Shown in pieces: positions 143-19,370 of a DNA stretch of 20,423 nucleotides. Made by a program: the position numbers and the translations under genes. How positions within the stretch are numbered: the stretch's first letter is position 1; each line of letters opens with the position of its first letter. Origin of the DNA: Catajapyx aquilonaris (lineage: Eukaryota); the NCBI GenBank assembly GCA_000934665.2, contig JYFJ02001342.1:62001-82423 (forward strand), given 5' to 3'. Under the pieces are notes generated by a model, which worked only from the letters and a program-made list of their open reading frames with translations, was not told the origin of the DNA and searched no databases.

Positions 143-662
143 CAGGGTGTAACAAAGTTATTTCTAGCACACCACATATTGCACTTGATATTTTTTTAAA
201 TTAACATTAGCTCTATAAATATGAATTTTTTTGAATGTCTGACAGGAAAGGCAATTTCTCTCCAAACACTGAAACACACGTCTGCCAAAACTGTCCACAA
301 GTTTGAACGTAGGCCATATCCTCTTTTGTGACCGATGCCCGTTCCTGCTGAACTCTCCTAATTAACTCCCGACGATTTCTTGGCCTGGGTTGCTTGAAAA
401 CACTGTATTGCAGCCTGGCCCACAGGTGTTCAATAGGATTTAAATCTGGAGAGTTTCCAGGCCAGTCAAGCCACACCTTTCCATACATCTTTTGTGCTGC
501 TGCAATGGACACTTTCGCAGTGTGGAATTTTGCACCATCTTGCATAAGCACCTTCAGGTTTTGTTTTGGAAAGATATGGCAGTCCTTCATCGTTTCTCCA
601 TACTTTGGCAACATCTTGTCACGACGATATTCCCCGTTTAAAAAATTACTGAGACTTTGCAC
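143..662 (-). mobile_element. Tc1-like DNA transposon relic (C-terminal DDE transposase fragment plus probable terminal repeat)
   Basis: ORF 213-662(-) contains QDGAKFHTAK and WPGNSPDLNPIEHLW, the second-D and catalytic-E motifs of Tc1 transposases. TA|CAGGGTGT at 141-150 resembles a Tc1/mariner terminus. No N-terminal half is recognisable. Confidence 0.88.
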
Positions 663-3108
663 TTGTACAGTACATTACTGACTGGGCTAGAAACTTATGT
701 TACACCATGTATGAATGCAGTTAATCGGGCTTTCAAAGGGATATTAACAAACATAAAATGTTATGGTACTAATTTCCACGTTCAGTATTACTCATCGTTC
801 CTCCTCAATTCAGTATTATTCAAGTTACAATTAGGGTGTCTGATATTTTAACTGCTATCATTTCTATAACGCAGCAGGTTTGTCAGGCACATGGAAACAA
901 GCATGGAAAAGCAAACTAATGAAGCCACTGCCCAACGTTCTTCTATACCAACTACATCAGCCGAAGTAAAAAACGTGACACAATAAAGGTATATGGCATA
1001 CACGTTGTTGGGGAACTTGTTGTATCCCAGATAATGGTACCTGTTGAGATTATTCTCAAATGCGCTTTTGACTTGAAATATCAGTATTTGGGATTTTTAA
1101 ACCCATTGTGAGGATTACCTTAAAGCTTGCAAAACTCAAAAATGAACATTCTGATTATTGCTCCCTCAAGCAGTAAGCTATTAGCAATGCATGGCAGTAT
1201 TTTGTTCCAAATTAACTGATCCTCATCTGCCCCTAACCTCACCCCAATGCATTGTATAATACGAGTATTTAATAGAAGGCTATGTTATAATCCATCAACC
1301 AAAGAGATTTGTTCGTAAGGGAATTCATATTTTGAATGAAATATTATAGGGTACAGTTAACGCGATATAGGGCGCGAAATTCGTTAAGGGAAAGAAACCA
1401 TAATAAAATATACATTTCTATAAAGTATATATAGCGTTACAGCATATAGACTATACTGCGTATTTTTTGAAAAGTTATAATCATTCAGAAAAAATAGGTC
1501 ATCTGTGTTTTGTTTGTGTATTATATAATTTATTAGTAAAGTAAACTTATCCTAGGTGTGCAAGTATGTTTTAAAAACTTATCTATATGGTCGGTTATCC
1601 GCGGTGGCTTGGTATACTAATTACCACAAATAACCGGGATCCTATACTCTATAATAATTTGTTGTGGCCTTGACAGGCAAAATAGAATCGAACTCTTGTC
1701 TATAGATGTATCTTCCGAGAAAACAGCCAGAAACTGTTTCTCTCAATCCAGAGAATAGTGGCACACCACCACCGCTTGAAGGAACGCATCACATTTGACA
1801 AACACATCGCCTCTGCCAACACTGGACGCAGCTCTTTGAATGCAGTGTGCATAGCTCTCCTTCGTCAAAGCATGCAGTTACCCTGCCACGTCCGTAATAC
1901 GTCACTCGAAGGCCCATTGCCAGCCGACTCTCTTTCCCTTGGTTCACAAGCTAAAGAAAAGGATGCAACAGAGGCAGCTGGCGGATGCAACTCACACTGC
2001 TTTCCTTCCGCTGCATGGTGAGCATCTCAGAAGTGGCCGTCACCTGGCGACGCCCAGGAGGACCCATGCCCAGAGTTTCATCCAGTTGCTGTAGGAAACC
2101 TGAAACGAGACAGGCGGAGGTGAAAAAAAAGATATGTGTTCGGGAGTTAATTAGACCCGCGCCGCAATTTGGCAAAGAGGAGAAACAGCAATGGCGGCGC
2201 TTCCGGAATGCCTCAGGCTCCTCAAGACTAATGCCTGTGTCCAGACGGATTCTCAGGCATCCGTCTGGCCGTCTCCAGCCAGCCCCTCTCTTTATATAAC
2301 GCATGACCTCCGTGAGAAAGGTCGGGATCCGCCTTATGCTAACTACGTCCAGTAGCTAAAAGGACGTTGCACTGACCGTGACCAAAATGGCACTTGTAAA
2401 TGCACTGGCCCAGGGACGTGTGTGTCCAGCACTGCCGCGAAATGAAAAATACTTTATGAGGACTTCTGGACTCTGGAAGGACGTGTATGACCTCCCAGCT
2501 CCGAATAGAAACCAATGGCTATATATTCTTCCAGTGCAGTGGTGAAAGAAACGATGGAAACTGACGTTAGCAGTGACGTGATTAATTTCAGCTCTCCATT
2601 CAGCCCTTCTTTTTCAGTGCGTTCATAGGCCTAAGGAACTGAGCATGTCGAACTGAGACTGAAGAATAGTGCAGCCGAGCGGTCACATGCTTGCCTTTTC
2701 AGTTCACAAAGAAATACTTGTAACAAATACCAGAGGGGTATAAATAAAAAAGCACGAAATAAACTGTGATACTTTTAGTCGCAATCTGAGCTTTAACCCT
2801 ACATAGTGGGTTTTTCCACCACCGAAGATAGAAAGAACAATAATGGATGTCGGGAAAATCCCACCACCTCAGCAGACTTGATTTTTGTCTCGATTTTAAA
2901 CAGAGCAAAGAAATAAAGGTGTGGTGACACTAACTGATCCGCCCAGATGGACGCATCAGGTGGGTGAGAAAAGTGTGCTAAGACGTTTATATAAATAATG
3001 CCACTATTATTGTCACACCTTGGATGCCAATCGGAGCTCACGTAAGAAAAAGTATCAAAAAAACCAAACCTTGTCTTCTCCTAACTCTAGGCTACTAAAT
3101 GGAACTAC

Positions 3109-6400: not shown

Positions 6401-7651
6401 TAACCGTACGTTACACGCCTCAGTTCAGAAACGCCTTGTTAATCCCACTACCTCAACCATGTCACTCTCACAGTTCAGTTGTGCTTCGAGTGTAGGAAAA
6501 AAAAACTCGCAAAAAAACAGGGACTTGACTTAGTGGGGATTGTGCCAACTCAAACCAACTGGGATGTCCCAGTAATTAGTTTCAGCGCACTTGGAAGAAA
6601 AAAAGAATTTGACACAAGAATTAAATAAACTGTCTTCAGGGTGTTAAAAATCGGGTTTCCTCACCTTCACCCTCGAGGTGCAAAGAGAAGTGTCCTGCTA
6701 CTCCAGGGGGCTATGGGGAAGTGCGCGAATATTTGGATTCTCAAACGAGACTAAGGGGAGGGGTAGACAGAAATTAGAACGGGGTCCTCCCACCTAACAA
6801 AATGTCCTCCAGAAAATGGAAACCTGAGGCCCCATCTGCTGTTTGTTTGCTTAAGCCTACATCATTCGGGGAAAGCTTTTAACAGGCTATTTCTCTCTTT
6901 TTTTTTAAACTGGTGTTGGGCTGCTCCCAAAGGTCGTCATTTACGTGCACCTTAAAGGCCCTTTCACACTATGCAGTTTATTGTACGATCCATGCGCCGT
7001 TTTAGATCCTCGACGACACGTGCCATGAGATAAATAATTTTACAGATATTTATGCCGATAACTTCACAATAATTCGATTGAACATCCAATTAGGAGGCTG
7101 ATTCACGGCATGCAAATACACTGCGAGACATGGCCTGATGGTGTCAGACCTAAAATGAGGTAGTGACTTCCTCGTTGAATCAGTTCCCAAAAATACAGGG
7201 TGCCTAATATTTCCGAAATAAGTACTGTATAAGCAGGCGAACTTTGACGCTAACAGGTGTGACCTAGGAAGGTCATCGTGGCTTGGCAAATTGCCAAATC
7301 TACCTACATATGTCTAGCCTAGTTGGCGTCCAAAAATATTCCAACCTTGGTTCTTTCTATGGACTTTGTTGCTTCAATGTCCATCCCTAAGAACACATTC
7401 CCTCCCACTGCATTTTTCAAGATTTTGTTTGGGGTAAGCAGTGAGCCAGTTGTTAGTCACAGTTGCGTACATGGGCGTGGCATGGTGTACGTACGGAGCA
7501 TTTAAGTTATGATGTTGACGTAGTCACATCCGCTTCCATTTCAGAGTCAACAGTTTCGTCAGGGGTTTCGTCGCCAAGAGATGCATCCAAACGAGTAACA
7601 ATGAAGCACAAACACGGGAATGTTTCTATATGCAACGACAACATTAAAAGA

Positions 7652-7747
7652 ATGGCATTTCACGTGTGCATGAGTCTTCTTACATGCGCCTGTCTTCTGC
7701 TGACACTTCATGCTGTACCCTTGGATGTACAACTATTACAAAATCCA
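7652..7747 (+). CDS. Avidin-like secreted protein, coding exon 1 (signal peptide)
   Basis: MAFHVCMSLLTCACLLLTLHAVPLDVQLLQNP: hydrophobic core with a plausible LHA|VP cleavage site. Donor CCA|GTAGGG, phase 0. An alternative in-frame ATG lies at 7601. Confidence 0.62.
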
Positions 7748-7886
7748 GTAGGGTGCACACTTTTTGTTACTAATATTTAATGCCTTAAGTATATGGTATG
7801 TCTAGGAATCATAATTATCAGCCAATGTATTTTCCCGACCCGAAATTAAATTGAAAAATATTGAATGATTGGTACCTTAACTATAG

Positions 7887-8103
7887 GAAGGCAGGGCCGA
7901 TGGCAGTCCAGAAGTAGTGACTCCGGAGTGGGAAACCGGAAAGGAAGATGCGATGCCGGGCACTGTTTCAACGAAGGAAGATCTGAGCGGAGAAACGCAT
8001 CTGCTGCTACACCACCTTCTCCAAGAGATCGAGCGCATGCGCCTCACACAAGCCCATGCCAGTACACGTGAAGAATTAGTCACTTCCCAACTGTCGGATA
8101 TTG
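7887..8103 (+). CDS. Avidin-like secreted protein, coding exon 2 (N-terminal extension)
   Basis: Acceptor CCTTAACTATAG|GAA and strong donor TTG|GTGAGT. Open frame EGRADGSPEVV...LLLHHLLQEIERMRLTQ...QLSDI. Phase 0 in, phase 1 out, matching both neighbouring exons. Confidence 0.68.
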
Positions 8104-8360
8104 GTGAGTAATGAGTATGTACCCAATGTGACACATTCTTGGTGGTCTTTTTATATGGTTCAAGTTGGTATGGCAGTTCGTGAAGATCTGAAATGAAATA
8201 TAATATCAATAGTGTTTTCATGAAAATGAGCTGAAAATGCCTATTTTGTCATTACAGTGAGCCCCCGGTTTAATATCCGCGGTTTCTTTAGAAAAGGTAT
8301 TAAATAAACATAAAATGAAAAATATTGCATTTTTAAAATTCGGATAGTACTTTCAGGTTT

Positions 8361-8975
8361 CAGCCATATTGCGCAATACCATGATGTGGTAAAAAAAAGC
8401 GCAAAATTTGGAAATAGCTGATTTATAGTTATATTAGTAATACAGTATATCTCGAAAACCGTGCTGGACACCACAATTCTAAGTGCCGATTTGGAATCAG
8501 GGAGAAAGGTACTATAGGAATCACTATTCACAACCTCAGAAAGATCAAAAAAAGTTTTTTGTAGAAGAGTGAAAATAACTATATCTGCAAAATATTTATT
8601 ATTTTCTCGCGAACCATGCATGACCCAGGCTTCAAACTTAACATACTGAACCTTATGTCGGTCACCACTAGTGTCACCAAATATGACTGATGTAACGCAA
8701 ACACATCAGTAATTGTTGAGGTCACCATTCTCGGGAATGTGACTGAGCAAGTGACCAATGAAATGCTATAAAAACTTATTTCTACATTTGAAAGGAAAAC
8801 TAATTCCATGGGCACATTTTTCTGGTGTTCCTCTTTCTTTTGATATATATGTTCATTGGCTTTTGACCACTTCCACTAATAACCGGGAAACAAATCTCCT
8901 AAAAAGGCCTCATTTTCAGCCATTTCCAGATTTTAGCGATTCTTTCCCTCATTATGGTATTGCGCAATATGGCTG
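8361..8975. mobile_element. Non-autonomous DNA transposon (MITE) with about 60-bp imperfect TIRs
   Basis: CAGCCATATTGCGCAATACCAT (from 8361) is the exact reverse complement of ATGGTATTGCGCAATATGGCTG (ending 8975), and similarity continues for about 60 bp. TT lies on both flanks (possible 2-bp TSD). Confidence 0.82.
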
Positions 8976-9933
8976 TTGAGTATATCTGCGATTATTTTCA
9001 CCTAGATCCGAGAGGGTCCAGCAACATTTAGGCCCACTTGGTTCAGAAAGACCCTTAGTAAATCGTTCAAAGTTTTAAAACTATATATCTCAAAACCTGT
9101 GTGTGATAGAAGATTTTGGTTAGCGTATTTGAAATCAGCGCAAACAATACAATAGGAATCCCACATTCGTGTACATGGGCCAAACCACACGTTCAATTTT
9201 GTTCCCTAGTGTTATTATCGAATTCGATGGCTCAAGTCATTTGCATTAAAAGATGACTTACATGTAATTATACGACATTGCATGTACTTATTTTAGCTAT
9301 GTAAAGGGTTTATAGAGCTCAGCATTGAGATAGAGATTGAGACGCTGCGCTCGCTGTTTCATAAAAAAAAGAGAATTTTTACGAAACAACATCCGCATTT
9401 CTTCTTCTGACACATTGCGCCTGTAAGGTACCATTTGGTAGCACAGAAGTGGTTGAAGGGTTGCGGACCATTCAGGATGAGGCAGATGCGTTACTTTCTT
9501 GTCATGCAATTACAATGATATGAATAAATGCTTAAGGCTTAGAATAGTGTTCACACTCACAAACCTAAATGCCACTCGAAAGTAAAACAGCTTCATTGTC
9601 TGATCAGAAAAAGAAGACGAAGAAGAAGAAAGAAAGGGGGGAGGGGGGAGGGAACAAATGCAGTAATCAACTAATCGCTGTTATTAAAAAAATTAGGAAG
9701 TCGTTCATTTCATAGTAAAAGTACGATCATCTTTAGTGGGCTTAACGTCGGCCTATTTCTGCTTCTAAGGCTAAACACCGAACAATGCATCTGTAGTGCG
9801 TAACACAAAACAAGGCACGACTAATAAAGTCTGCGAGGGAAGGCCTACAGGGTGCTCCAATTGACAGACTATACAGTATAAGTTTTTTCTATCAACCAAA
9901 GTATTTTTCAGAAGTGGTCGTCAATAGTAATTT

Positions 9934-9991
9934 AACAACAACAACAACAACAACAACAACAATCTAATAATAATAATCTAATAATAATAAT
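9934..9991 (+). repeat. Compound microsatellite (AAC)n followed by two TC(TAA)4 units; SINE tail
   Basis: Directly visible tandem repeats. Confidence 0.95.
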
Positions 9992-10244
9992 GGACACCGC
10001 CTGTGATAGGCCTTCTAGGGCTTTTTAGGCGATCATCTTTTAACTAACCGTCTTTAATCATTGTCGTTGCTCTGATGGGTTTTGATGGTGGGAGGGAACG
10101 GGAGAACCCCGAGAAACTCCCCGCGAACACGGAGAGAACCCATCGAAACTCTATCCACATAAGTGTCCTTCTGTCCGACCCGGGGATCGAACTCAGGACC
10201 TCAGAGGTGGAAGGCTGTGGCGATAACCACTCCACCACCGTGCC
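9934..10244 (-). mobile_element. tRNA-derived SINE with V-domain-like central core and (TTA)n/(TTG)n tail
   Basis: Minus strand starts GGCACGGTGGTGGAGTGGTTA (A box 10237-10227), B box GAGTTCGATCCC (10194-10183), core GTTCTCTCCGTGTTCGCGGGGAGTTTCTCGGGGTTCTCCCGTTCCCTCCCAC, then a simple-repeat tail. Confidence 0.85.
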
Positions 10245-10949
10245 TCTCTGGTTGTCGAAAGTATTTGTTACTCATGTTTGGTTGCATTGACTCATCATTT
10301 TTAACGCCTTCAAGTCAATGAGTCTGGTCTGCAACAAATGAGTGCAATCATTGATGTTCGACGATGTTTTTTTTTTAATAAACTATTCCCAATAGGAAAT
10401 TTATTCCAGTATTCAGAGCTGAGATGAATGATTCCATTCAGTCAATGTCATCAGCAAACACTTTTGATAACCACTAAAGGTACCAAGTCCAAAATAACTG
10501 CTTAAAATAAGAACTTGGTGACAGAAAATAGCTAGCTAAAATGGACATTTTAATGTGGATGCCCTGTATTTCAAATCTAAGAAATTCTAGAATCCCCTTT
10601 CCCTGCCCACCAAGAAAAAGGGGGGAAAAAACAGAACCTTTAATAGGCCTACTGTGGATATAGGTTGTTATGCTGCCAGGAAAATATAATGTAAAATCAC
10701 CCAATCATAAGCTGACATTTCCCTACATCCACCAAACAGCTATTCCAGTCCATCAAGTTCAATTTTCAATACACCATGCATCACACGATTCACACCCTTA
10801 TACTATAAAGCGCCCAGTATTCTTGACCATAACTCTAGTAGCATACAATAAATGTTACAGTACAATATTACCACATAACTTGCGGCAGTATGACCTACTG
10901 CAGAATGAATGTCAAACTAATGTACTAATCCCGTCCACAATGCATTTAG

Positions 10950-11140
10950 GCTTACCTTGTGATGTAGAAGGGACTTGGTGGAGCACCTCAACACAAGCTG
11001 CATTACAAATTCGCAAGGATTCACAACAATCTATCAGCATAGAAGTTGGGCAGGAAGAACTTGTCACAGGTTTCCAACTAGCAAATAACATGAAGCTTAC
11101 CAGCAAGTGGTCTTTACAAGCAATTGGTCCAAAATATGAG
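10950..11140 (+). CDS. Avidin-like secreted protein, coding exon 3 (first half of avidin barrel)
   Basis: Acceptor CATTTAG|GC and donor GAG|GTAATG. (G)LPCDVEGTWWS matches the avidin N-terminal C-x3-G-x-W motif. Phase 1 in, phase 0 out. Confidence 0.8.
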
Positions 11141-11490
11141 GTAATGCGTATCGAATATTTTGCACATAACTCTCTGCCTATCGGCTTTTAATGTGGTTAC
11201 ATCCAAACGAGTCACATGAATAACGTATCAGAAGTGGGTTACGAATATGGGTAAAAGTTACTTCCCAGGATCATGGTCAGATTTCAAACTACAATGTAGT
11301 AATATCAACATTACTGTGATTGTCTGTCTTTACCAAGACTGAAGTGTTGATTGTCTGTTAACATGGCTACATGGTCAAAAAATGACAGCAATCTTGGTAT
11401 AACACCGCTACCTAAAAGAATGAAGATAAATATTTTCACAACCCCTGCATGTTTTTTACCAATGACAATCACAAAATAGTCACATACAAC

Positions 11491-11752
11491 CGAAGCGGGT
11501 TATTTCACCGACCCCCACCCGGTCGACAGGCCATTTCACCGACATACCCACTCCACCAACAAGGAGGTTCCCCGCCACGATGTCTCACCAACAGGGCGTT
11601 ACTACGACAAAACATATCACCGACACCCACATATCGGAATTGTGTGGGTAAATTTGTCGATCAATGACTGTTGGTGAAATGCCGTCGGGGAACCTCCTTG
11701 TCGGTGAAATGGCCTGTCGGCCGGGTGGGTGTCGGTGAAATGACCCACACCC
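11491..11752. mobile_element. MITE with long sub-repeated TIRs and 8-bp TSD
   Basis: Left GGGTTATTTCACCGACCCCCACCCGGTCGACAGGCCATTTCACCGACA is mirrored by right TGTCGGTGAAATGGCCTGTCGGCCGGGTGGGTGTCGGTGAAATGACCC. Direct repeat CATACAAC at 11483-11490 and 11753-11760. Confidence 0.88.
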
Positions 11753-11897
11753 CATACAACTGACTCCTTTCATCAAATTAATTTGATGCAAGAATTTAAA
11801 AATTCTTTATCTGCATGTGAAGCAATTCTAATAGGGTACAACAACATAACAAAAAAAAGTGTCAATCACTTACTGAATATTGTGTTTGTTATTTCAG

Positions 11898-12101
11898 GGA
11901 GGTCCTTTCACTATCACTGGTTTTTGCCCAGAAGGAAATCATGCAGCAGTTTTTATTGGTCAATGTCGAATATGTGGTAGAAAAGCAATCATTTCAGGCT
12001 CATGGATCATGCTCATGGCTGCAAATAACTGCCCCAATCTACAAAATCAGATTCTTCACAGCCATGATATCATGCACAAAGTTGGAGATTTTCAGAAATA
12101 A
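11898..12101 (+). CDS. Avidin-like secreted protein, last coding exon
   Basis: Acceptor TTATTTCAG|GGA. GGPFTITGFCPEGNHAAVFIGQCRICGRKAIISGSWIML...HDIMHKV matches avidin VFTGQC...TMWLL...NIFTRL. Stop TAA at 12099-12101. Confidence 0.83.
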   Translation, partial: GGPFTITGFCPEGNHAAVFIGQCRICGRKAIISGSWIMLMAANNCPNLQNQILHSHDIMHKVGDFQK

Positions 12102-12202
12102 AAGGCTCTCTTCTTTTCATTTTCTTATTTTAAAACACTTACAACTTGACTAGTACAAAGTCAGGTGTAAAAGTAACAAACGTGTGACTAGATGTAAATA
12201 AA
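12097..12202 (+). promoter_or_regulatory. Candidate polyadenylation signals (AATAAA) of the avidin-like gene
   Basis: AATAAA at 12097-12102 (overlapping the stop codon) and at 12197-12202. Confidence 0.5.
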
Positions 12203-13235: not shown

Positions 13236-13445
13236 CTGAAAAACAAGTGAAAGAAAAAGGTGCAATGCAATTGCTTGTGCAAAATTAATAACTGCCCCTT
13301 TCAATGTAAATCAAGCAAAAAGCAGCAAAAATCAGGCACAATACATTATAGAATATTGGTAATTCATTCCAACACATCCAGATTTCATGTGGCAGTTATC
13401 AATGAGGCAAATCCATAAGTTAATAATGTTATAAAAACTCCGAAC

Positions 13446-13985
13446 CTTAGATGTTGCTTCTCCTGAAGGTATGTTAGCAACAACAACTCCTTCACTATCC
13501 CCACTACTAGTCACGCTGCTGCTGTCCAGAGATGGTTGCTGATGAACTTCAGCAATTACAGTTTCTTTCTTCTTAGGCTCCACCACACTTTCTTTTTCTT
13601 CTTCCTTCTCTTTTACTGTCTTTCTTTCTTCTGTCTCATCTCCTTCCTCTACTCCCTCCTCCTCCTCACCCACCTCCTGCTCTGCTTCTGCTGCTTCGCC
13701 CTCAAGAGGTTCGCTTTCTTCCTGATGTTCATCATCATCTTCATCAAACATTGTGTCATCTTCATAGTCTGTGTCAACTGCCTCCTCTGACACATTTTCC
13801 CTTTGTTTATCTTGTTCTTCTGGATCCTGGGATTCCTCTTCCTGTGTGGACTCACTCACCTCTTCCACTATGCTTAGTGTTTGCAAGGTGCTTGGCATGT
13901 CAGTTGACTTTTCAGATTTCTCCAATTCTTCTGGTGTGGTTTCATGTGACTGAGGAACAGCTACCCTTGGACTTGCCTTAGGAAC
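13446..13985 (-). CDS. RPGRIP1L: RPGRIP1L-like exon (acidic low-complexity linker)
   Basis: E/D-rich ORF ending SSGDSEGVVV...; donor AAG|GTTCGG. The acceptor TCAAG|GTT at 13985 is in frame but uncertain; an in-frame alternative starts at 13976. Confidence 0.8.
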
Positions 13986-14112
13986 CTTGATATTTAAAAA
14001 TTGAGAATTTTTTTTAAAGCGAAAAATGCATCACCAAGAGACAAAACCTCACATGACATTCAGATGATAACAATCATAACAAGAAATGAAACACCAGAAG
14101 GTAAAGTGTTAC

Positions 14113-14415
14113 CTTAGCTTTGGGTGAAACTGCTACTCCTTGAGTATTATCTCCTTCATAATGAGCTGTCCCTTCGACTGGCAATTCTTTCCTTTCTGCT
14201 TCCTTAGAAGGTTTCTGATTTGGAACTACTGTCTGCCCTCGCTTCCTTGGAAGGACTCTAGGTGCTGGTGCAGGAAGCTTTGGTCTTGCTTGCCTCTCAC
14301 TTGCTTTTGCTTCTCCATTGCTTAGCTGTTCTTTTTCTCCCGGAAGTAACGTAATAGTAGGAGAGGTCACCATTGGTAGGGAACTAAGCAAAGTGTCAGA
14401 TGCATCTATAGCTTT
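14113..14415 (-). CDS. RPGRIP1L: RPGRIP1L-like exon (P/K-rich linker)
   Basis: Acceptor TATTTTCAG|AAA and donor AAG|GTAACA. 303 nt, phase 0-0, contains PAPAPR. Confidence 0.83.
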
Positions 14416-14574
14416 CTGAAAATAGATTTCAACAAGGGCACAATCGTTTTACATAGTATATAAAAGTCTATTTCAATTTCATCAGACGCCAAACTGTTCT
14501 TGAGAAAATTTGTATAGGTGATTAGGTGGTATACTCAAGCATAAGAATAGCAAACATTCTCACAACCGACTCAC

Positions 14575-15189
14575 CTGTCCATGCTCAACCTGCCACCAAA
14601 TCTGGCTGGCTTGCATCCTGAAGCTGTACTCCAAGGTTGCTAAATCTCTGTTATCATCACTAAGTCCATGTAGAGTCACCATCCCATGCAAACGGTTGGA
14701 TGGGAAGGTAAGTAATTCTGAGAACTGCAGTTCCCCTCTGGCTATAATCCTCGAGTCATCCTCCCCAACAGCCAAATGCAACTCCACCCTGGTTCCACCC
14801 CTCCGCAGAAAGTCATTCCAATGAGCATCAAGATCCACCGGATACACAGAGCACAAGTGGAAGTTTGCCTTGGGACCAGAAACCACAGCAGTGTATTGCA
14901 AATCCCGACCCATAAAAGACCAAGTGGCAAAGACCCGTGGAGATGGATGACCCACAACTGAAAGGCCTTCAGAAGTGAGAGTGGCCATGCGGATCTGCAG
15001 CTCAAACAGGCCCTGGCCAGGGCCAACACTCAGAGAAGAAGCAAGTACATCAGAAGGTTCCAAGGTGCCATTTGAGGTCTCCAATGAATGGATGCGATTG
15101 GCACGGAGATTAAGAAGTCGAGTGTACTCACGTAGGCGGGCAGCATGGTCCACCTGGACTTCAGATAAGTGCTGGGTCAGGAGTGATAC
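14575..15189 (-). CDS. RPGRIP1L: RPGRIP1L-like exon (end of coiled coil plus first C2 domain, C2-C2_1/DUF3250)
   Basis: Acceptor TTCTTTTAG|GTA and donor CAG|GTGAGT. YTRLLNLRANRIHSLE and GQGLFELQI...FATWSF...QYTAVVSG...LATLEYSFRM. 615 nt, phase 0-0. Confidence 0.93.
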
Positions 15190-15920
15190 CTAAAAGAAAG
15201 TGAAATAGTAACTTTGATTAAAGTCTGCACCAGTTACTTGCATTGAAAAATGCATGCTATAAAGATTTTTTGATTATTCCAATATTTTAACAGTATCCAA
15301 TGTGAAACCCATCTGATTAATTGAATAGAAGAACCCTTACTGACCGAACTAAATAACAGTGATTCCACCAATATGTATCTCAGTAATGAGTAGATTTGAT
15401 ATTTAAACAACTTAATATGTTATCACCTGCCCATGCAATCTTATTTTGTATAACTTAACGAAATGCATACCGGTACTAATCTTGTGTAATAAGTGCGTAT
15501 CAGAAGTAGGCCTTCTCACCCTGACATAAAATTGGAACATTGGAACAAATTTACGAAGCAGGCAAAAAAATTCAACTGAAATTATGGTCATGGAAAACAA
15601 TTTATTGCAGGATTAACAGGAAAATTGCAATCCACTAAAAGTCTAAAGAGAGGTTGCAGATGACAACAAGGCCCCTAATCTAGTCTGATCACCATGGGTA
15701 GCTTACCTGCCTGGGTAACTGGTTGTTTACTTCTAGCATTTTATATATTGCCATGAGGAGAAAAGCTACCCAGGGCAATAAGACTAGAAGGTAATGAATC
15801 ACAACATTTATGATGCCCTCTATTTGCACTCACATCATCCATTACTTTCAACGGGATCCATAATGTAACATGAGATCTTTGATATGCTTTTGGCCAATCA
15901 TTAACCTTCCGAATTAGTTT

Positions 15921-16309
15921 GGGGCTGTCCATAATCCGCGCGGACATATTTTTTCACTTTTTTACCTCCTCCCCTCCCCTTTGCGGACAGAAGCAGACAA
16001 TATATTACTTCCCCCCCTAAAAATTACGTGGACATGGCCTCCTTGACCCCCCCTCCCTTCACCGTGAAAGTGTTATTTTCAATAGGCCTACATTTGTATT
16101 TATATTTTTTATATCTACACACAAATTTGACAAATTTGGTATATTTGACATGTCTGACTAAGAAATGGGCAAGTCCTTAATATTAATTTAACGTTTATTG
16201 TCCACGAGTACAACAGACCTCTACCCCCACCCCCCTGTACAGACAAAAGCGGACAAAGTGCAACCCCCCTCTCCCCCTTCACTTGTCCACGCGGATTATG
16301 GACGGCCCC
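15921..16309. mobile_element. MITE with 26-bp GGGG...CCCC TIRs and 3-bp TSD (Zator- or PIF/Harbinger-type ends)
   Basis: GGGGCTGTCCATAATCCGCGCGGACA versus TGTCCACGCGGATTATGGACGGCCCC (24/26 match as inverted repeats). TTT on both flanks. Confidence 0.88.
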
Positions 16310-16370
16310 TTTCTGCAAGTGAGCCTCATTTACCAGAACAGAAGATTGAAATAGTTAATCTATACAAAAC

Positions 16371-16829
16371 CTGAGTCTTGTAGTCCTGGTTGATGCGATG
16401 CTGTATCCCCAACAGATGCCTAGTCTTCTCCAGTTCCTCTGCAGTCTCCAGGAACTGGGCTCTCAGTAGAGCCACTTCCTCACTCCTCTCTAGGTTGCCT
16501 ATATTCTCTGGGGTCTCCCTCACAAAAAGAGGTTTCCTGATCATGGCTGATACTGAAGCTACTTCTTCATCAGGAACTTTAGGAGATTGAATCACTTCTG
16601 GGGGTTCCACTCGAAGAAACTTTGGTTCCTGGATGTCAAAGTCCTTCCTCTGTTCCTCATTTGTGAGTGTCACATTTGACTCTCGTAACTGAGCCATGTG
16701 CTTTTCCTGCTCCCTGAGTTGCAACTCCAATGCCCGGCATCTTTGCCTTTCCTCTTCCAGCCTCCCCAAAAGAGTAGATTGCTCTTGGAGATCTGACTTG
16801 ACAGTAGCTTCCAGTTGGGCAATCTGCAG
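16371..16829 (-). CDS. RPGRIP1L: RPGRIP1L-like exon (coiled coil)
   Basis: Acceptor TTACAG|CTG and donor CAG|GTTTTG. LQIAQLEATVKSDL and ETAEELEKTRHLLGIQHRINQDYK are family-typical motifs. 459 nt. Confidence 0.93.
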
Positions 16830-17161
16830 CTGTAATTTCAGGTACATGTAGGGTGTGTTGAAAATAGGATACAAGCATAATACTGTAGCAGTCACTTTCC
16901 ACAAATTTGGCTTCTGCTCTGGTGTTTCCCCATTTGCTTTGTACAAGCCAGCCATTTTAACACTGGACTCCTCCTCGGATTATTAGGGGCTTTATATATA
17001 CTGGATTGTAAATTCTGGGACCATAAAGTAACTTCATACTAAGCTACCTAATATCCAAATTTTGTCTTATCCAACCTACAGAGCCAGAAATCACTACTCT
17101 CTGGTGGAGAATTGGTTTCACTTCGTCATATATGGATTTCATTTTATTCTTCTTCTTATTA

Positions 17162-17241
17162 CAGTATTACCTCACGTTACGCGACATGCCGCTATAACCC
17201 AGGGGTGTCCGAAATGCCGCAATAACAGAGGTAGAATTCTG
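17162..17241. mobile_element. Tiny degenerate Tigger/pogo-type MITE
   Basis: TA|CAGTATTACCTC...GAGGTAGAATTCTG|TA: imperfect inverted termini with TA flanks. Confidence 0.5.
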
Positions 17242-17582
17242 TAATTTTGATCCTTGTCTTTTTTTAATGGAATGCTTCTAGTACCATACTGAAACTATGT
17301 TACGATGAAAATGGGCAAGTGTAGAGTCAACTCTTCAAGAGGACAGTGATGATGGCTTTCCATTTCTATGCACACAGATGACATCACTAGAATTGTCTAT
17401 TGATTACTTCTGCAGTGATGCTTCCCAGCCAAAATGTTTCATCTTGACGTAAATCAATAAATTTCCTCACCACCCCCATATTGCAGATAATAAACAGTTC
17501 ACACTACATTGTACAGTATTGGTATTTGTTAACCATTTTAATAATTAATTTCACCAACACTTCATGAGTTAGATATACTCAC

Positions 17583-17684
17583 TTTCAGGCTATCTATGGT
17601 GTCCAGATGCTGCTTCTCCTTCTCTGAATTCAAGGCAGCTCCCACAAGCTTCTCATTTGTCTTCTGTAGCAGTTCATTGTCAAG
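17583..17684 (-). CDS. RPGRIP1L: RPGRIP1L-like exon (coiled coil)
   Basis: Acceptor TTCTTGCAG|CTT and donor AAA|GTGAGT. LDNELLQKTNEKLVGAALNSEKEKQHLDTIDSLK, 102 nt. Absent from the ORF track. Confidence 0.87.
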
Positions 17685-17743
17685 CTGCAAGAACAATTCA
17701 TTTGCACAAGGTTTCAGAAATGTACAGGAACCAACACACTAAC

Positions 17744-17868
17744 CTGCAGATCAGACAGTTGCTGCTGATATTCCTTGACTGTCTGCTTGGCTAGGATGCT
17801 CTCCCTCACCTCACCCTGTAGCTCCAAGTAATTACTCTTCTCTTGCTGCAGCTGCTCCTTCACTTTAT
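17744..17868 (-). CDS. RPGRIP1L: RPGRIP1L-like exon (coiled coil)
   Basis: Acceptor CATTTTAG|AT and donor CAG|GTTAGT. (D)KVKEQLQQEKSNYLELQ...YQQQLSDLQ. Phase 1 in, phase 0 out. Confidence 0.87.
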
Positions 17869-17896
17869 CTAAAATGAACAATGATGGATATTTATA

Positions 17897-18621
17897 TTAG
17901 GTGGAGTCAATAAGTACCCGCCCCGGTCCCAGGAGGCCGGTAGGTGACGGTGGAGACAGGTGCTGCTGTGCTTGGCTGTGAGGGACATTCGCAGTTGCCA
18001 ACCTGGCCAAGGGTATGCTGCAGAAATGTTGTTCATGATATCAAGTGTGTCCAAGGAGGACGAACGGGCAGTGATTGCTGCAGTGATTTAGTTCCTGTGT
18101 GGGGAGGGAAAGGAACCGAAGGCAATTCATACGTGCATAAGGGCTGTGTATGGAGACACTTGCATGGCGTACAAGACAGCAAAGGACTGGGTCCGCCATT
18201 TCTGCAGTGGCCGACAAGGCACGTCGGACATGGCACGGCTAGGCCGACCTGTTACCGCCTCCACCGATGCAAGCATAGTGTGAGTCAAGGGGGGACCCAG
18301 TCCTTCACTGTCGTGTACGCCATGCAAGTGTCTCCATACACAGCCCTCATGCGCATATGAATCGCCTTCGGTTCCTCTCCCTCCGCACACAGGAACTGAA
18401 TCGCTGCGGCAATCACTGCCCATTCGTCCTTCTTGGACACACCTGATATTGTGAACGACATTTTCCAACTCTATACCGCAGCTACTATGCAGCACACCTC
18501 GTTCACCCCTGGCCAGGTTGGCGACTGCAAATGTACCTCACAGCAAAGCGCAGCAGCACAGGTCTCCATCGTCACCTGCCGGGCTCCCACGGCCGGGGTG
18601 AGTACTTATTGACTAGACTAG
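17897..18621. mobile_element. Mariner-derived foldback element (two inverted copies of the transposon 5' end)
   Basis: Arms 17897-18194 and 18293-18621 are inverted copies with AGTCAATAAGTAC termini and TA flanks. Both arms encode a mariner N-terminal HTH fragment, e.g. AIQFLCAEGEEPKAIHMRMRAVYGDTCM. Confidence 0.92.
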
Positions 18622-18780
18622 TACTTACAGCTACTTCCACTTTTTCCACCACCCTTTTTAGTCATAAGTATGAAAATCATGTCAATAAATATTTCTACAC
18701 TTTCTCTTAAATGAATTAACTTGCACCTTCATGAAGCACATGGGCAAAAGACAGTGGTACTACTGAAAAATCTTATTTAC

Positions 18781-19018
18781 CCAATTCTTTCCTGATCATT
18801 TCTGCAGCTGTCCTTTCCTGTTTGAGTACTTCATCTGCCTGTCTACACTCTGCTGCTAGTGCTTCTGTCTTCGCTTCCGCTTCTTGAAGGTCTCTCCGCA
18901 TGTGAATGACACCAAGCTCATCTTGAAGCTCATGTTCATGCGTCTGAGACAATTGTTCCCTCAGAGACATCAATTCTTCTTCTTGTTCCATTTCCCGCAG
19001 CCGTGACTCCTCATTTGC
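18781..19018 (-). CDS. RPGRIP1L: RPGRIP1L-like exon (first coding exon visible in window; coiled coil)
   Basis: Acceptor GAGCAG|GCA and donor TTGG|GTAAAT. ANEESRLREMEQEEELMSLREQL...RKEL. Its phase-1 end matches the next exon. Upstream exons lie outside the window. Confidence 0.8.
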
Positions 19019-19370
19019 CTGCTCATGGTGGGGAAATATCAGCCAACACACTTGGGTTAAGATACAACTGAATTCATTATTTTGTATATGTTCATATGTG
19101 AAGAACAATAATGATAAATTGCACATACTCTGCTTTACAAGAGCATACAAGAGGTTAGATGAGCATGAGGAGTGAGAGTCCTTTCTTCAAAAATACATCC
19201 TGTTTCTGGCCTGCTAGCTGCTACCAATATTACATACCAGTACTGCATTGTACGAGTATTTGCAATTGAAAACAAAACTGAAACAATATCTTTTCTAAAG
19301 AATATCACACTTTTTATACATTTTTATTACCCTACTGGCCTCCAAAGTCATTATGGGGAATACTTTATGA

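Follow-up and report, generated by a model that had tools for sequence, protein, structure and literature searches.

A four-exon gene in Catajapyx aquilonaris that may encode a secreted protein with a very divergent, avidin-like domain

The window described here is a stretch of 20,423 nucleotides (nt) from Catajapyx aquilonaris (NCBI GenBank assembly GCA_000934665.2, contig JYFJ02001342.1, positions 62,001 to 82,423 of the forward strand). Its plus strand carries, between window positions 7652 and 12101, four exons that join into one open reading frame (ORF) of 235 codons, and this avidin-like gene, as we call it below, stands tail-to-tail with a minus-strand ciliary gene of the RPGRIP1/RPGRIP1L type. 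We consider it likely that the four exons represent an unannotated gene for a secreted protein, in which exons 3 and 4 would encode a very divergent domain of the avidin superfamily that most likely does not bind biotin. Avidins are among the most used proteins of biotechnology, and their natural roles and their spread among animals are poorly known. All coordinates given in the text are window positions, and the term “window protein” stands for the product of 235 amino acids (aa) of the joined four-exon model on the plus strand.

The four-exon gene model

The exons, introns and candidate polyadenylation signals of the gene are as follows.

7652..7747, plus strand: exon 1, starting with ATG, 32 codons, hydrophobic signal-peptide-like N-terminus, ends in phase 0
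7748..7886, plus strand: intron 1, 139 nt, GT...AG, guanine-plus-cytosine (GC) fraction 0.31
7887..8103, plus strand: exon 2, 217 nt, acidic linker of about 72 residues with a net charge of -9, ends in phase 1
8104..10949, plus strand: intron 2, 2846 nt, GT...AG, with repeats and microsatellites inside
10950..11140, plus strand: exon 3, 191 nt, putative first half of the domain, with LPCDVEGTW at the start and a predicted strand around KWSLQA at the end
11141..11897, plus strand: intron 3, 757 nt, GT...AG, with an inverted-repeat element inside
11898..12101, plus strand: exon 4, 204 nt, putative second half of the domain, with VFIGQCRIC, GSWIM, NNC and HDIMHKV, stop codon TAA
12097-12102 (overlapping the stop) and 12197-12202, plus strand: AATAAA pattern matches, candidate polyadenylation signals whose use is putative

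The joined coding sequence measures 708 nt, that is, 235 codons followed by a single terminal TAA (12099-12101), and contains no internal stop. Exon lengths of 96, 217, 191 and 204 nt result in phases of 0, 1 and 0, and all three introns of the model are bounded by GT...AG. An earlier note on this DNA, made from the sequence alone, had described four exons with GT-AG sites, phases 0/1/0 and an ORF of about 235 aa; re-reading and translation confirmed this structure to the base, and the peptide motifs quoted there were found in the translations of exons 3 and 4. The start ATG at 7652 lies in a strong context (aaaagaATGG), with an in-frame upstream ATG at 7601 as an alternative start for exon 1. 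The donors of exon 2 (gtgagt, preceded by TTG) and exon 3 (gtaatg) are both consensus-like, and among the acceptors that of exon 4 has a good pyrimidine tract, those of exons 2 and 3 having weaker ones.

Exons 3 and 4 and their relative P0009

When the exon 4 peptide (67 aa) was searched with HMMER against 1,835,955,588 representative proteins, five matches were obtained at an expectation value (E) of 0.001 or below. P0009 (E 7.5e-4), an unnamed protein of 208 aa known only from a single contig assembled out of a public read set, is the only true relative among these 1.84 billion representatives. The four remaining matches are bacterial repeat proteins (MBG_2, Big_13 and others), which we regard as artefacts because their scores sum many weak stretches (17, 11, 5 and 6 of them). 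The best E-values of the search (3e-30, 5e-9) went to such bacterial repeat proteins, and the true homologue came last.

Exon 4 shares 32% identity with P0009 138-196 over 59 residues (pairwise E 2e-12), the start of exon 3 is identical to P0009 at seven of nine residues, and the whole of exon 3 is colinear with P0009 80-133. After splicing, residues 84-230 of the window protein and residues 55-196 of P0009 form one high-scoring segment pair (57 bits, E 1e-14, 40/151 identical) that spans both the exon 2/3 and the exon 3/4 junctions. For exon 3 and for exon 4 alike, none of 1000 self-shuffles reached the observed P0009 score. An unbroken ORF encodes P0009, which gives independent support to joining exons 3 and 4 in this order. 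The homology of the exon 3-4 unit to P0009 stands, as do the ORF and its splice logic, and judging from these comparisons we take it as a near certainty that exons 3 and 4 form one genuine coding unit.

The two proteins have the same layout, in which a hydrophobic N-terminus (12-residue hydropathy mean 2.03 in P0009) is followed by a spacer, about 60 residues long in P0009, and then by the domain; four of their Cys align, and they are 26% identical over 151 columns. P0009 differs in having a spacer that does not align with exon 2, in having three extra Cys, and in being far more Arg/Ala-rich, with a domain net charge of +12 against 0 in the window protein.

The earlier note had called this gene hidden, and within two large protein collections, to which the statement is confined, no similar protein came to light apart from P0009. 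A word-based protein search returned nothing for exon 4 and only P0009 itself for P0009. In metagenomes, a scan with the family profile gave no relatives among 225 pattern matches, and of 13 loci that matched a degenerate nucleotide pattern of the strand-6 motif (strands being numbered as in avidin) none carried the remainder of the domain. A near-identical ORF of 25 codons that contains the strand-6 motif recurs on nine contigs from two metagenomes (L097, L099, L101, L102 and L104-L108); we regard this ORF as a dispersed repeat unrelated to the avidin-like gene. No paralogous exons were seen elsewhere in the window, and the parts of the literature covered held no account of such a family, which is weak evidence of absence.

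The avidin-like domain and its alternatives

Among 24,736 Pfam models scanned, Avidin (PF01382, curated gathering cut-off 24 bits) is the top match of exon 4 (E 0.016, 16 bits, profile 70-114 of 116) and the sole match of P0009 (E 0.03, 15.1 bits, profile 65-101), in both cases below the cut-off and at equivalent places of the profile. A sub-threshold match of exon 4 to TtuA_LIM_N was judged to be due to chance, and NCBIfam returned nothing relevant. A two-row profile made of P0009 and exon 4 was compared with 177,635 PDB sequences and found nine chains at E ≤ 10, eight of which are chicken AVR2, AVR4/5 or avidin chimeras (the best being AVR2, E 0.089), the ninth being a RecD chain that matches the spacer. 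The avidin signal rises with profile depth, since searches of the PDB with exon 3, exon 4 or P0009 as single sequences gave no avidin and the two-row profile did. In the ESM Atlas (7.7 million clusters), the top three clusters for P0009 are all avidin, mostly chordate (scores 0.89, 0.88 and 0.88), and exon 4 alone reached a best score of 0.81, which is uninformative. All methods that returned a family for the exon 3-4 unit or for P0009 returned avidin, never at a significant level, and these weak lines converge in suggesting an avidin-type domain.

At the level of residues, we used a reference set of 14 non-identical bacterial avidin domains, obtained from the PF01382 matches in 16 of 401 Pseudomonadota genomes, and a 17-row alignment that includes these 14 together with P0009 and the window protein. 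Three-row MAFFT alignments were excluded from inference, as they put the second half of exon 3 in the wrong place. In the 17-row alignment the strand-1 Trp (W88 of P0009) hardly varies, nor does the strand-6 Gly (G155 of P0009). Two more residues align with the bacterial avidins: the strand-7 Trp, and the strand-8 Asp, which lies within D-V/I-M-x-R/K-V, opposite the bacterial D-T/I-F-T-R. In the PDB profile alignment, V-F-V/I-G-x-C of exon 4 and P0009 aligns on V-F-V/T-G-Q-C of AVR2 and AVR4, which places the strand-6 Cys on the Cys of AVR2/AVR4, and the Trp of G-S-W aligns on the strand-7 Trp of avidin.

Chicken avidin has one intrasubunit bridge, Cys4-Cys83 (PMC1082904). The distance from the Cys before the strand-1 Gly-x-Trp to the strand-6 Cys is 83 residues in the window protein, 75 in P0009 and 79 in avidin, and both Cys of the avidin strand-1/strand-6 disulfide appear to be kept, their pairing being a prediction from these positions. 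Both proteins also have a CxxC after the strand-6 Gly-Gln and a later Cys, so that they have two more Cys in common, namely the second of the CxxC and another in the strand 7-8 loop; a second bridge, which would be specific to the family, may join these two. The domain of the window protein holds a fifth, unpaired Cys.

AlphaFold2 was run on P0009 with the 14 bacterial avidins in the alignment and gave a predicted local distance difference test (pLDDT) score of 65.9 and a predicted template modelling (TM) score of 0.59. This avidin-conditioned model has eight strands at 86-196, and its spacer forms a long helix at 40-69. Foldseek returned 32 PDB chains for it at E ≤ 0.001, and among the matches listed all are avidin or streptavidin. 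Chicken BBP, avidin, zebavidin and AVR4 (TM 0.62-0.71 by target) ranked above streptavidin and rhizavidin; this vertebrate-first order was not built in, because the alignment held bacterial avidins only, and it agrees with the chicken avidins found by the PDB sequence profile. When the peptides of exons 3 and 4 were given to an ESMFold-based test as separate chains, the interaction prediction score from aligned errors (ipSAE) was 0.01, which is not evidence either way.

Several results weigh against an avidin assignment, and they would suit an explanation in which exons 3 and 4 belong to a new secreted, disulfide-bonded, beta-rich family unrelated to avidin, the motifs being due to chance or convergence. 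No avidin score is significant, neither the 16 and 15.1 bits in Pfam against a cut-off of 24 nor the best PDB E of 0.089. In the ESM Atlas the score stays below 0.9, with 152 shared features where true members usually have at least 170, a count in the range of chance matches or distant relatives, and the Atlas tool grades both values as a lead only. The N-terminal half of the domain gives no avidin signal, since exon 3 has no Pfam match and a profile of exon 3 and P0009 retrieved from the PDB a RecD chain matching the spacer but no avidin. Profile-profile comparison with the 14 bacterial avidins was not significant (P 0.064, 0.046 and 0.028-0.038 across runs). The hhalign alignment is colinear over the whole barrel (exon 3-4/P0009 family 79-177 against bacterial avidin 2-97), and its score was reached by 2 of 200 column shuffles and nearly equalled by the reversed control (16.6 vs 17.1). 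A hidden Markov model of the bacterial avidins gave 2.8 bits for the window protein and 0.9 bits for P0009, and of the 12 columns conserved in at least 10 of the 14 bacterial avidins, four are kept in P0009 and five in the window protein. With a family-only alignment, AlphaFold2 reached a pLDDT of 31.8 for P0009, which is unusable, and the eight-strand model is circular as a test of homology because its alignment already contained avidins. What an unrelated family leaves unexplained is that avidin was picked from 24,736 Pfam models, from 177,635 PDB sequences (eight of nine chains) and from 7.7 million Atlas clusters (the top three), and that four landmarks and the disulfide Cys stand in the right order and spacing; we regard such a family as distinctly unlikely. 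The earlier note had read the domain as avidin-type and named a match to PF01382 and an eight-stranded barrel as checks. Weak matches in Pfam, the PDB profile search and the ESM Atlas, together with the landmarks, converge on that reading, and none of the scores exceeds an accepted threshold; PF01382 did prove to be the top or only Pfam match, short of its cut-off and not for exon 3; and the eight strands with their avidin matches appeared on P0009 only when avidins were in the alignment.

A separate doubt concerns the 5′ end, as exons 3 and 4 could be genuine while the 5′ half is a fortuitous chain of ORFs with the true first exons elsewhere, or the locus could be silent or a relic. The similarity of exon 2 to P0009 is at chance level, its gain of 6 score units being equalled or beaten by 311 of 1000 shuffles. 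ORFs of about 70 codons are by our own estimate not rare at 40% GC, and the pyrimidine tracts at the exon 2 and 3 acceptors are weak. Pfam found no EGF or other domain in exons 1 and 2, only a sub-threshold PEHE match of exon 2 that we judged to be chance. The link of exons 1 and 2 to exon 3 is thus not backed by homology and would rest on phase, splice sites, GC contrast and the shared architecture. These features nevertheless argue for the 5′ exons. Exon 1 joins its strong start context to a signal-like core (best 12-residue Kyte-Doolittle mean 2.42, residues 5-16), which the family needs since P0009 has one, and the hydropathy scan found no other membrane-like stretch in the window protein or in P0009; provided that exon 1 belongs to the gene, this heuristic marks it as a putative secretion signal. 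The frame of exon 2 is open only from 7887 to 8108, i.e., between its splice sites (74 codons), and without its 217 nt exon 1 (phase 0) would be out of frame with exon 3 (phase 1), which is indirect support for it. Exon 2 also ends in a gtgagt donor and has a GC fraction of 0.54 against 0.31 and 0.38 in the flanking introns, 16-23 points above its flanks. The only other plus-strand ORF of at least 80 aa between exons 1 and 3 is the repeat-derived one at 10048-10290, and the four exons are without stops or frameshifts. We therefore hold a wrong 5′ half or a silent locus to be rather unlikely, and the complete four-exon model to be fairly likely correct. Avidins contact biotin through an Asn and a Ser of strand 1 and loop 1, a Tyr of strand 3, and Trp residues of strands 5, 7 and loop 7-8, and one may ask whether the window gene encodes a functional biotin-binding avidin, like chicken avidin, zebavidin or the lancelet and sea-urchin avidins. 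A secreted architecture, the strand-7 Trp, the strand-8 Asp and the disulfide Cys would be compatible with this. Yet the Asn and the Gly-Ser that follow the strand-1 Trp in all 14 bacterial avidins are Ala/Thr and Ala-Gly/Gln-Ala in the P0009/window family, the Gly before the strand-3 Tyr/Phe is replaced by Glu/Ile, P0009 has Leu and the window protein Cys at the position of the AVR2 strand-5 Trp, and the entire window protein has a single Tyr. The biotin-contact residues of the avidin family are therefore not preserved as a set, the strand-7 Trp and the strand-8 Asp being retained. In avidin itself, replacement of Trp70 and Trp110 by the fibropellin residues was reported to be enough to virtually abolish biotin binding (PMC8033661). 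Because the residues of the biotin pocket that hold the ureido ring are replaced, the window protein most likely has no avidin-like affinity for biotin, and a biotin-binding avidin at this locus is very improbable.

For a divergent avidin-superfamily domain in a secreted protein, the explanation we prefer, the parts of the gene could be assigned as follows. Exon 1 would encode a signal peptide and exon 2 a linker or arm that is acidic and probably helical, while exons 3 and 4 together would encode a domain of about 130 residues, a very divergent eight-stranded up-and-down beta-barrel of the avidin superfamily. The landmarks kept in the barrel would be the Gly-x-Trp of strand 1, the Gly of strand 6 with the disulfide Cys after it, the Trp of strand 7 and the Asp of strand 8. 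The strand-1 Cys would be placed to pair with the strand-6 Cys, like Cys4-Cys83 of avidin, and the second Cys of the CxxC may form a second bridge with the strand 7-8 loop Cys. With the residues for the biotin ureido ring replaced, the barrel might serve as a scaffold for some other small ligand or for oligomerisation, comparable to the fibropellin domain. A new non-biotin avidin-fold subfamily is probable on these grounds.

Compared with the vertebrate avidins (chicken avidin, AVR2, AVR4/5, BBP-A and zebavidin; PF01382), the window protein is likewise small and, by prediction, secreted. Its best, weak sequence matches are AVR2 and AVR4/5, and Foldseek places the conditional model closest to BBP-A, avidin, zebavidin and AVR4. 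The window protein also retains both Cys of the intrasubunit bridge, as well as the Gly of strand 6 and the Trp of strand 7. It differs by the acidic linker of about 72 residues with an exon of its own, by the CxxC and the loop Cys, by scores below the family thresholds and by biotin contacts that are mostly replaced. Vertebrate avidin genes are described as having four exons, of which the first encodes the signal peptide and exons 2-4 the barrel (PMC3811995, PMC1082904), the exons of zebavidin measuring 87, 211, 120 and 42 nt (PMC3811995). The window gene also has four exons with a signal-peptide-like first one, but it departs from the vertebrate layout in that its putative barrel lies in two exons (191 and 204 nt) separated by a phase-0 intron. 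The known eukaryotic avidins are secreted, and they have been reported from birds, reptiles, amphibians, fish, sea urchin, lancelet and fungi (PMC8033661).

The sea-urchin fibropellins offer another comparison. They are reported not to bind biotin, with key Trp replaced and the avidin-like domain serving for oligomerisation (PMC8033661, PMC10336842), and they are large mosaics in which a C1S-like domain occurs together with as many as 21 EGF repeats (PMC10336842). The window domain resembles the fibropellin domain in being without the biotin contacts, whereas the whole window protein has 235 aa and its model shows no EGF or C1S-like domains in Pfam. Because EGF repeats are absent, it is not a fibropellin. 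A Cys pattern in common with the fibropellin domain, as the earlier note proposed, would be a further parallel. The resemblance to the bacterial avidins (streptavidin, rhizavidin and the 14 Pseudomonadota domains) lies in colinearity over the whole barrel and in the shared columns of the strand-1 Trp, the strand-6 Gly, the strand-7 Trp and the strand-8 Asp. Identity to them is only 12-19% and the profile comparison is not significant; they keep the Asn, Gly-Ser and Tyr/Phe biotin contacts that are absent from the P0009/window family, and they are without the four Cys conserved in P0009 and the window protein.

More tentatively, the window protein and P0009 could represent a third stand-alone lineage of animal avidin-fold proteins, neither biotin-binding avidin nor fibropellin module. 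Such proteins would be secreted and would have a helical N-terminal arm, a second disulfide pinning the strand 7-8 loop, and a pocket rebuilt for a non-biotin ligand or for assembly, and they would be sampled so rarely that the 1.84 billion representatives include only two members; we regard this as a serious possibility without favouring it. If the avidin assignment is true, the gene would show how the barrel can be re-used after the loss of biotin binding, with a rebuilt pocket, an extra disulfide and an N-terminal arm, a re-use documented so far only for the fibropellin domain, and it might provide a new scaffold for small ligands or oligomerisation. The gene also illustrates how spliced, small and fast-evolving secreted proteins escape ORF-level and similarity-based annotation.

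Neighbouring gene and repeats in the window

Apart from the avidin-like gene, the window holds the following elements.

13332-19186, minus strand: exons of the RPGRIP1/RPGRIP1L-type gene, convergent with the avidin-like gene
13332-14030, minus strand: ORF that is a very acidic tail, part of the RPGRIP1-type gene
14560-15189, minus strand: ORF with a C2-C2_1 domain (Pfam E 7.3e-25; C2 domain of human ‘fantom’, 2yrb, E 8.9e-14)
16326-16979, minus strand: ORF with a Rootletin-like coiled coil (weak, E 7.7e-5, below cut-off)
213-674, minus strand: fragment of a Tc1/mariner-type transposase (Pfam DDE_3, E 6.8e-10)
8361-8975: inverted repeat in intron 2, 45-nt arms, 82% complementary, 525 nt apart, possibly a small transposon
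9930-10260: (AAC)n and (AAT)n microsatellites in intron 2
11497-11544 and 11699-11746: inverted repeat in intron 3 resembling a miniature inverted-repeat transposable element (MITE), 48-nt arms, 94% complementary, 154 nt apart
17905-18614: large foldback element with nested inverted repeats, inside the RPGRIP1-type gene

For the ORF with the C2-C2_1 domain, human ‘fantom’ is the best PDB match, with only 55 bits over 141 residues, which suggests a non-vertebrate animal. Following the microsatellites of intron 2, the minus strand reads to our own eye like the head of a tRNA-derived short interspersed nuclear element, and ARAGORN and Rfam found nothing at this place. The MITE-like repeat of intron 3 contains a second, nested pair of 27 nt (89%). 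Inside the RPGRIP1-type gene, one pair of arms of the foldback element measures 177 nt (89% complementary, 86 nt apart) and another 110 nt (85%), and the element gives rise to mirror-image ORFs on both strands.

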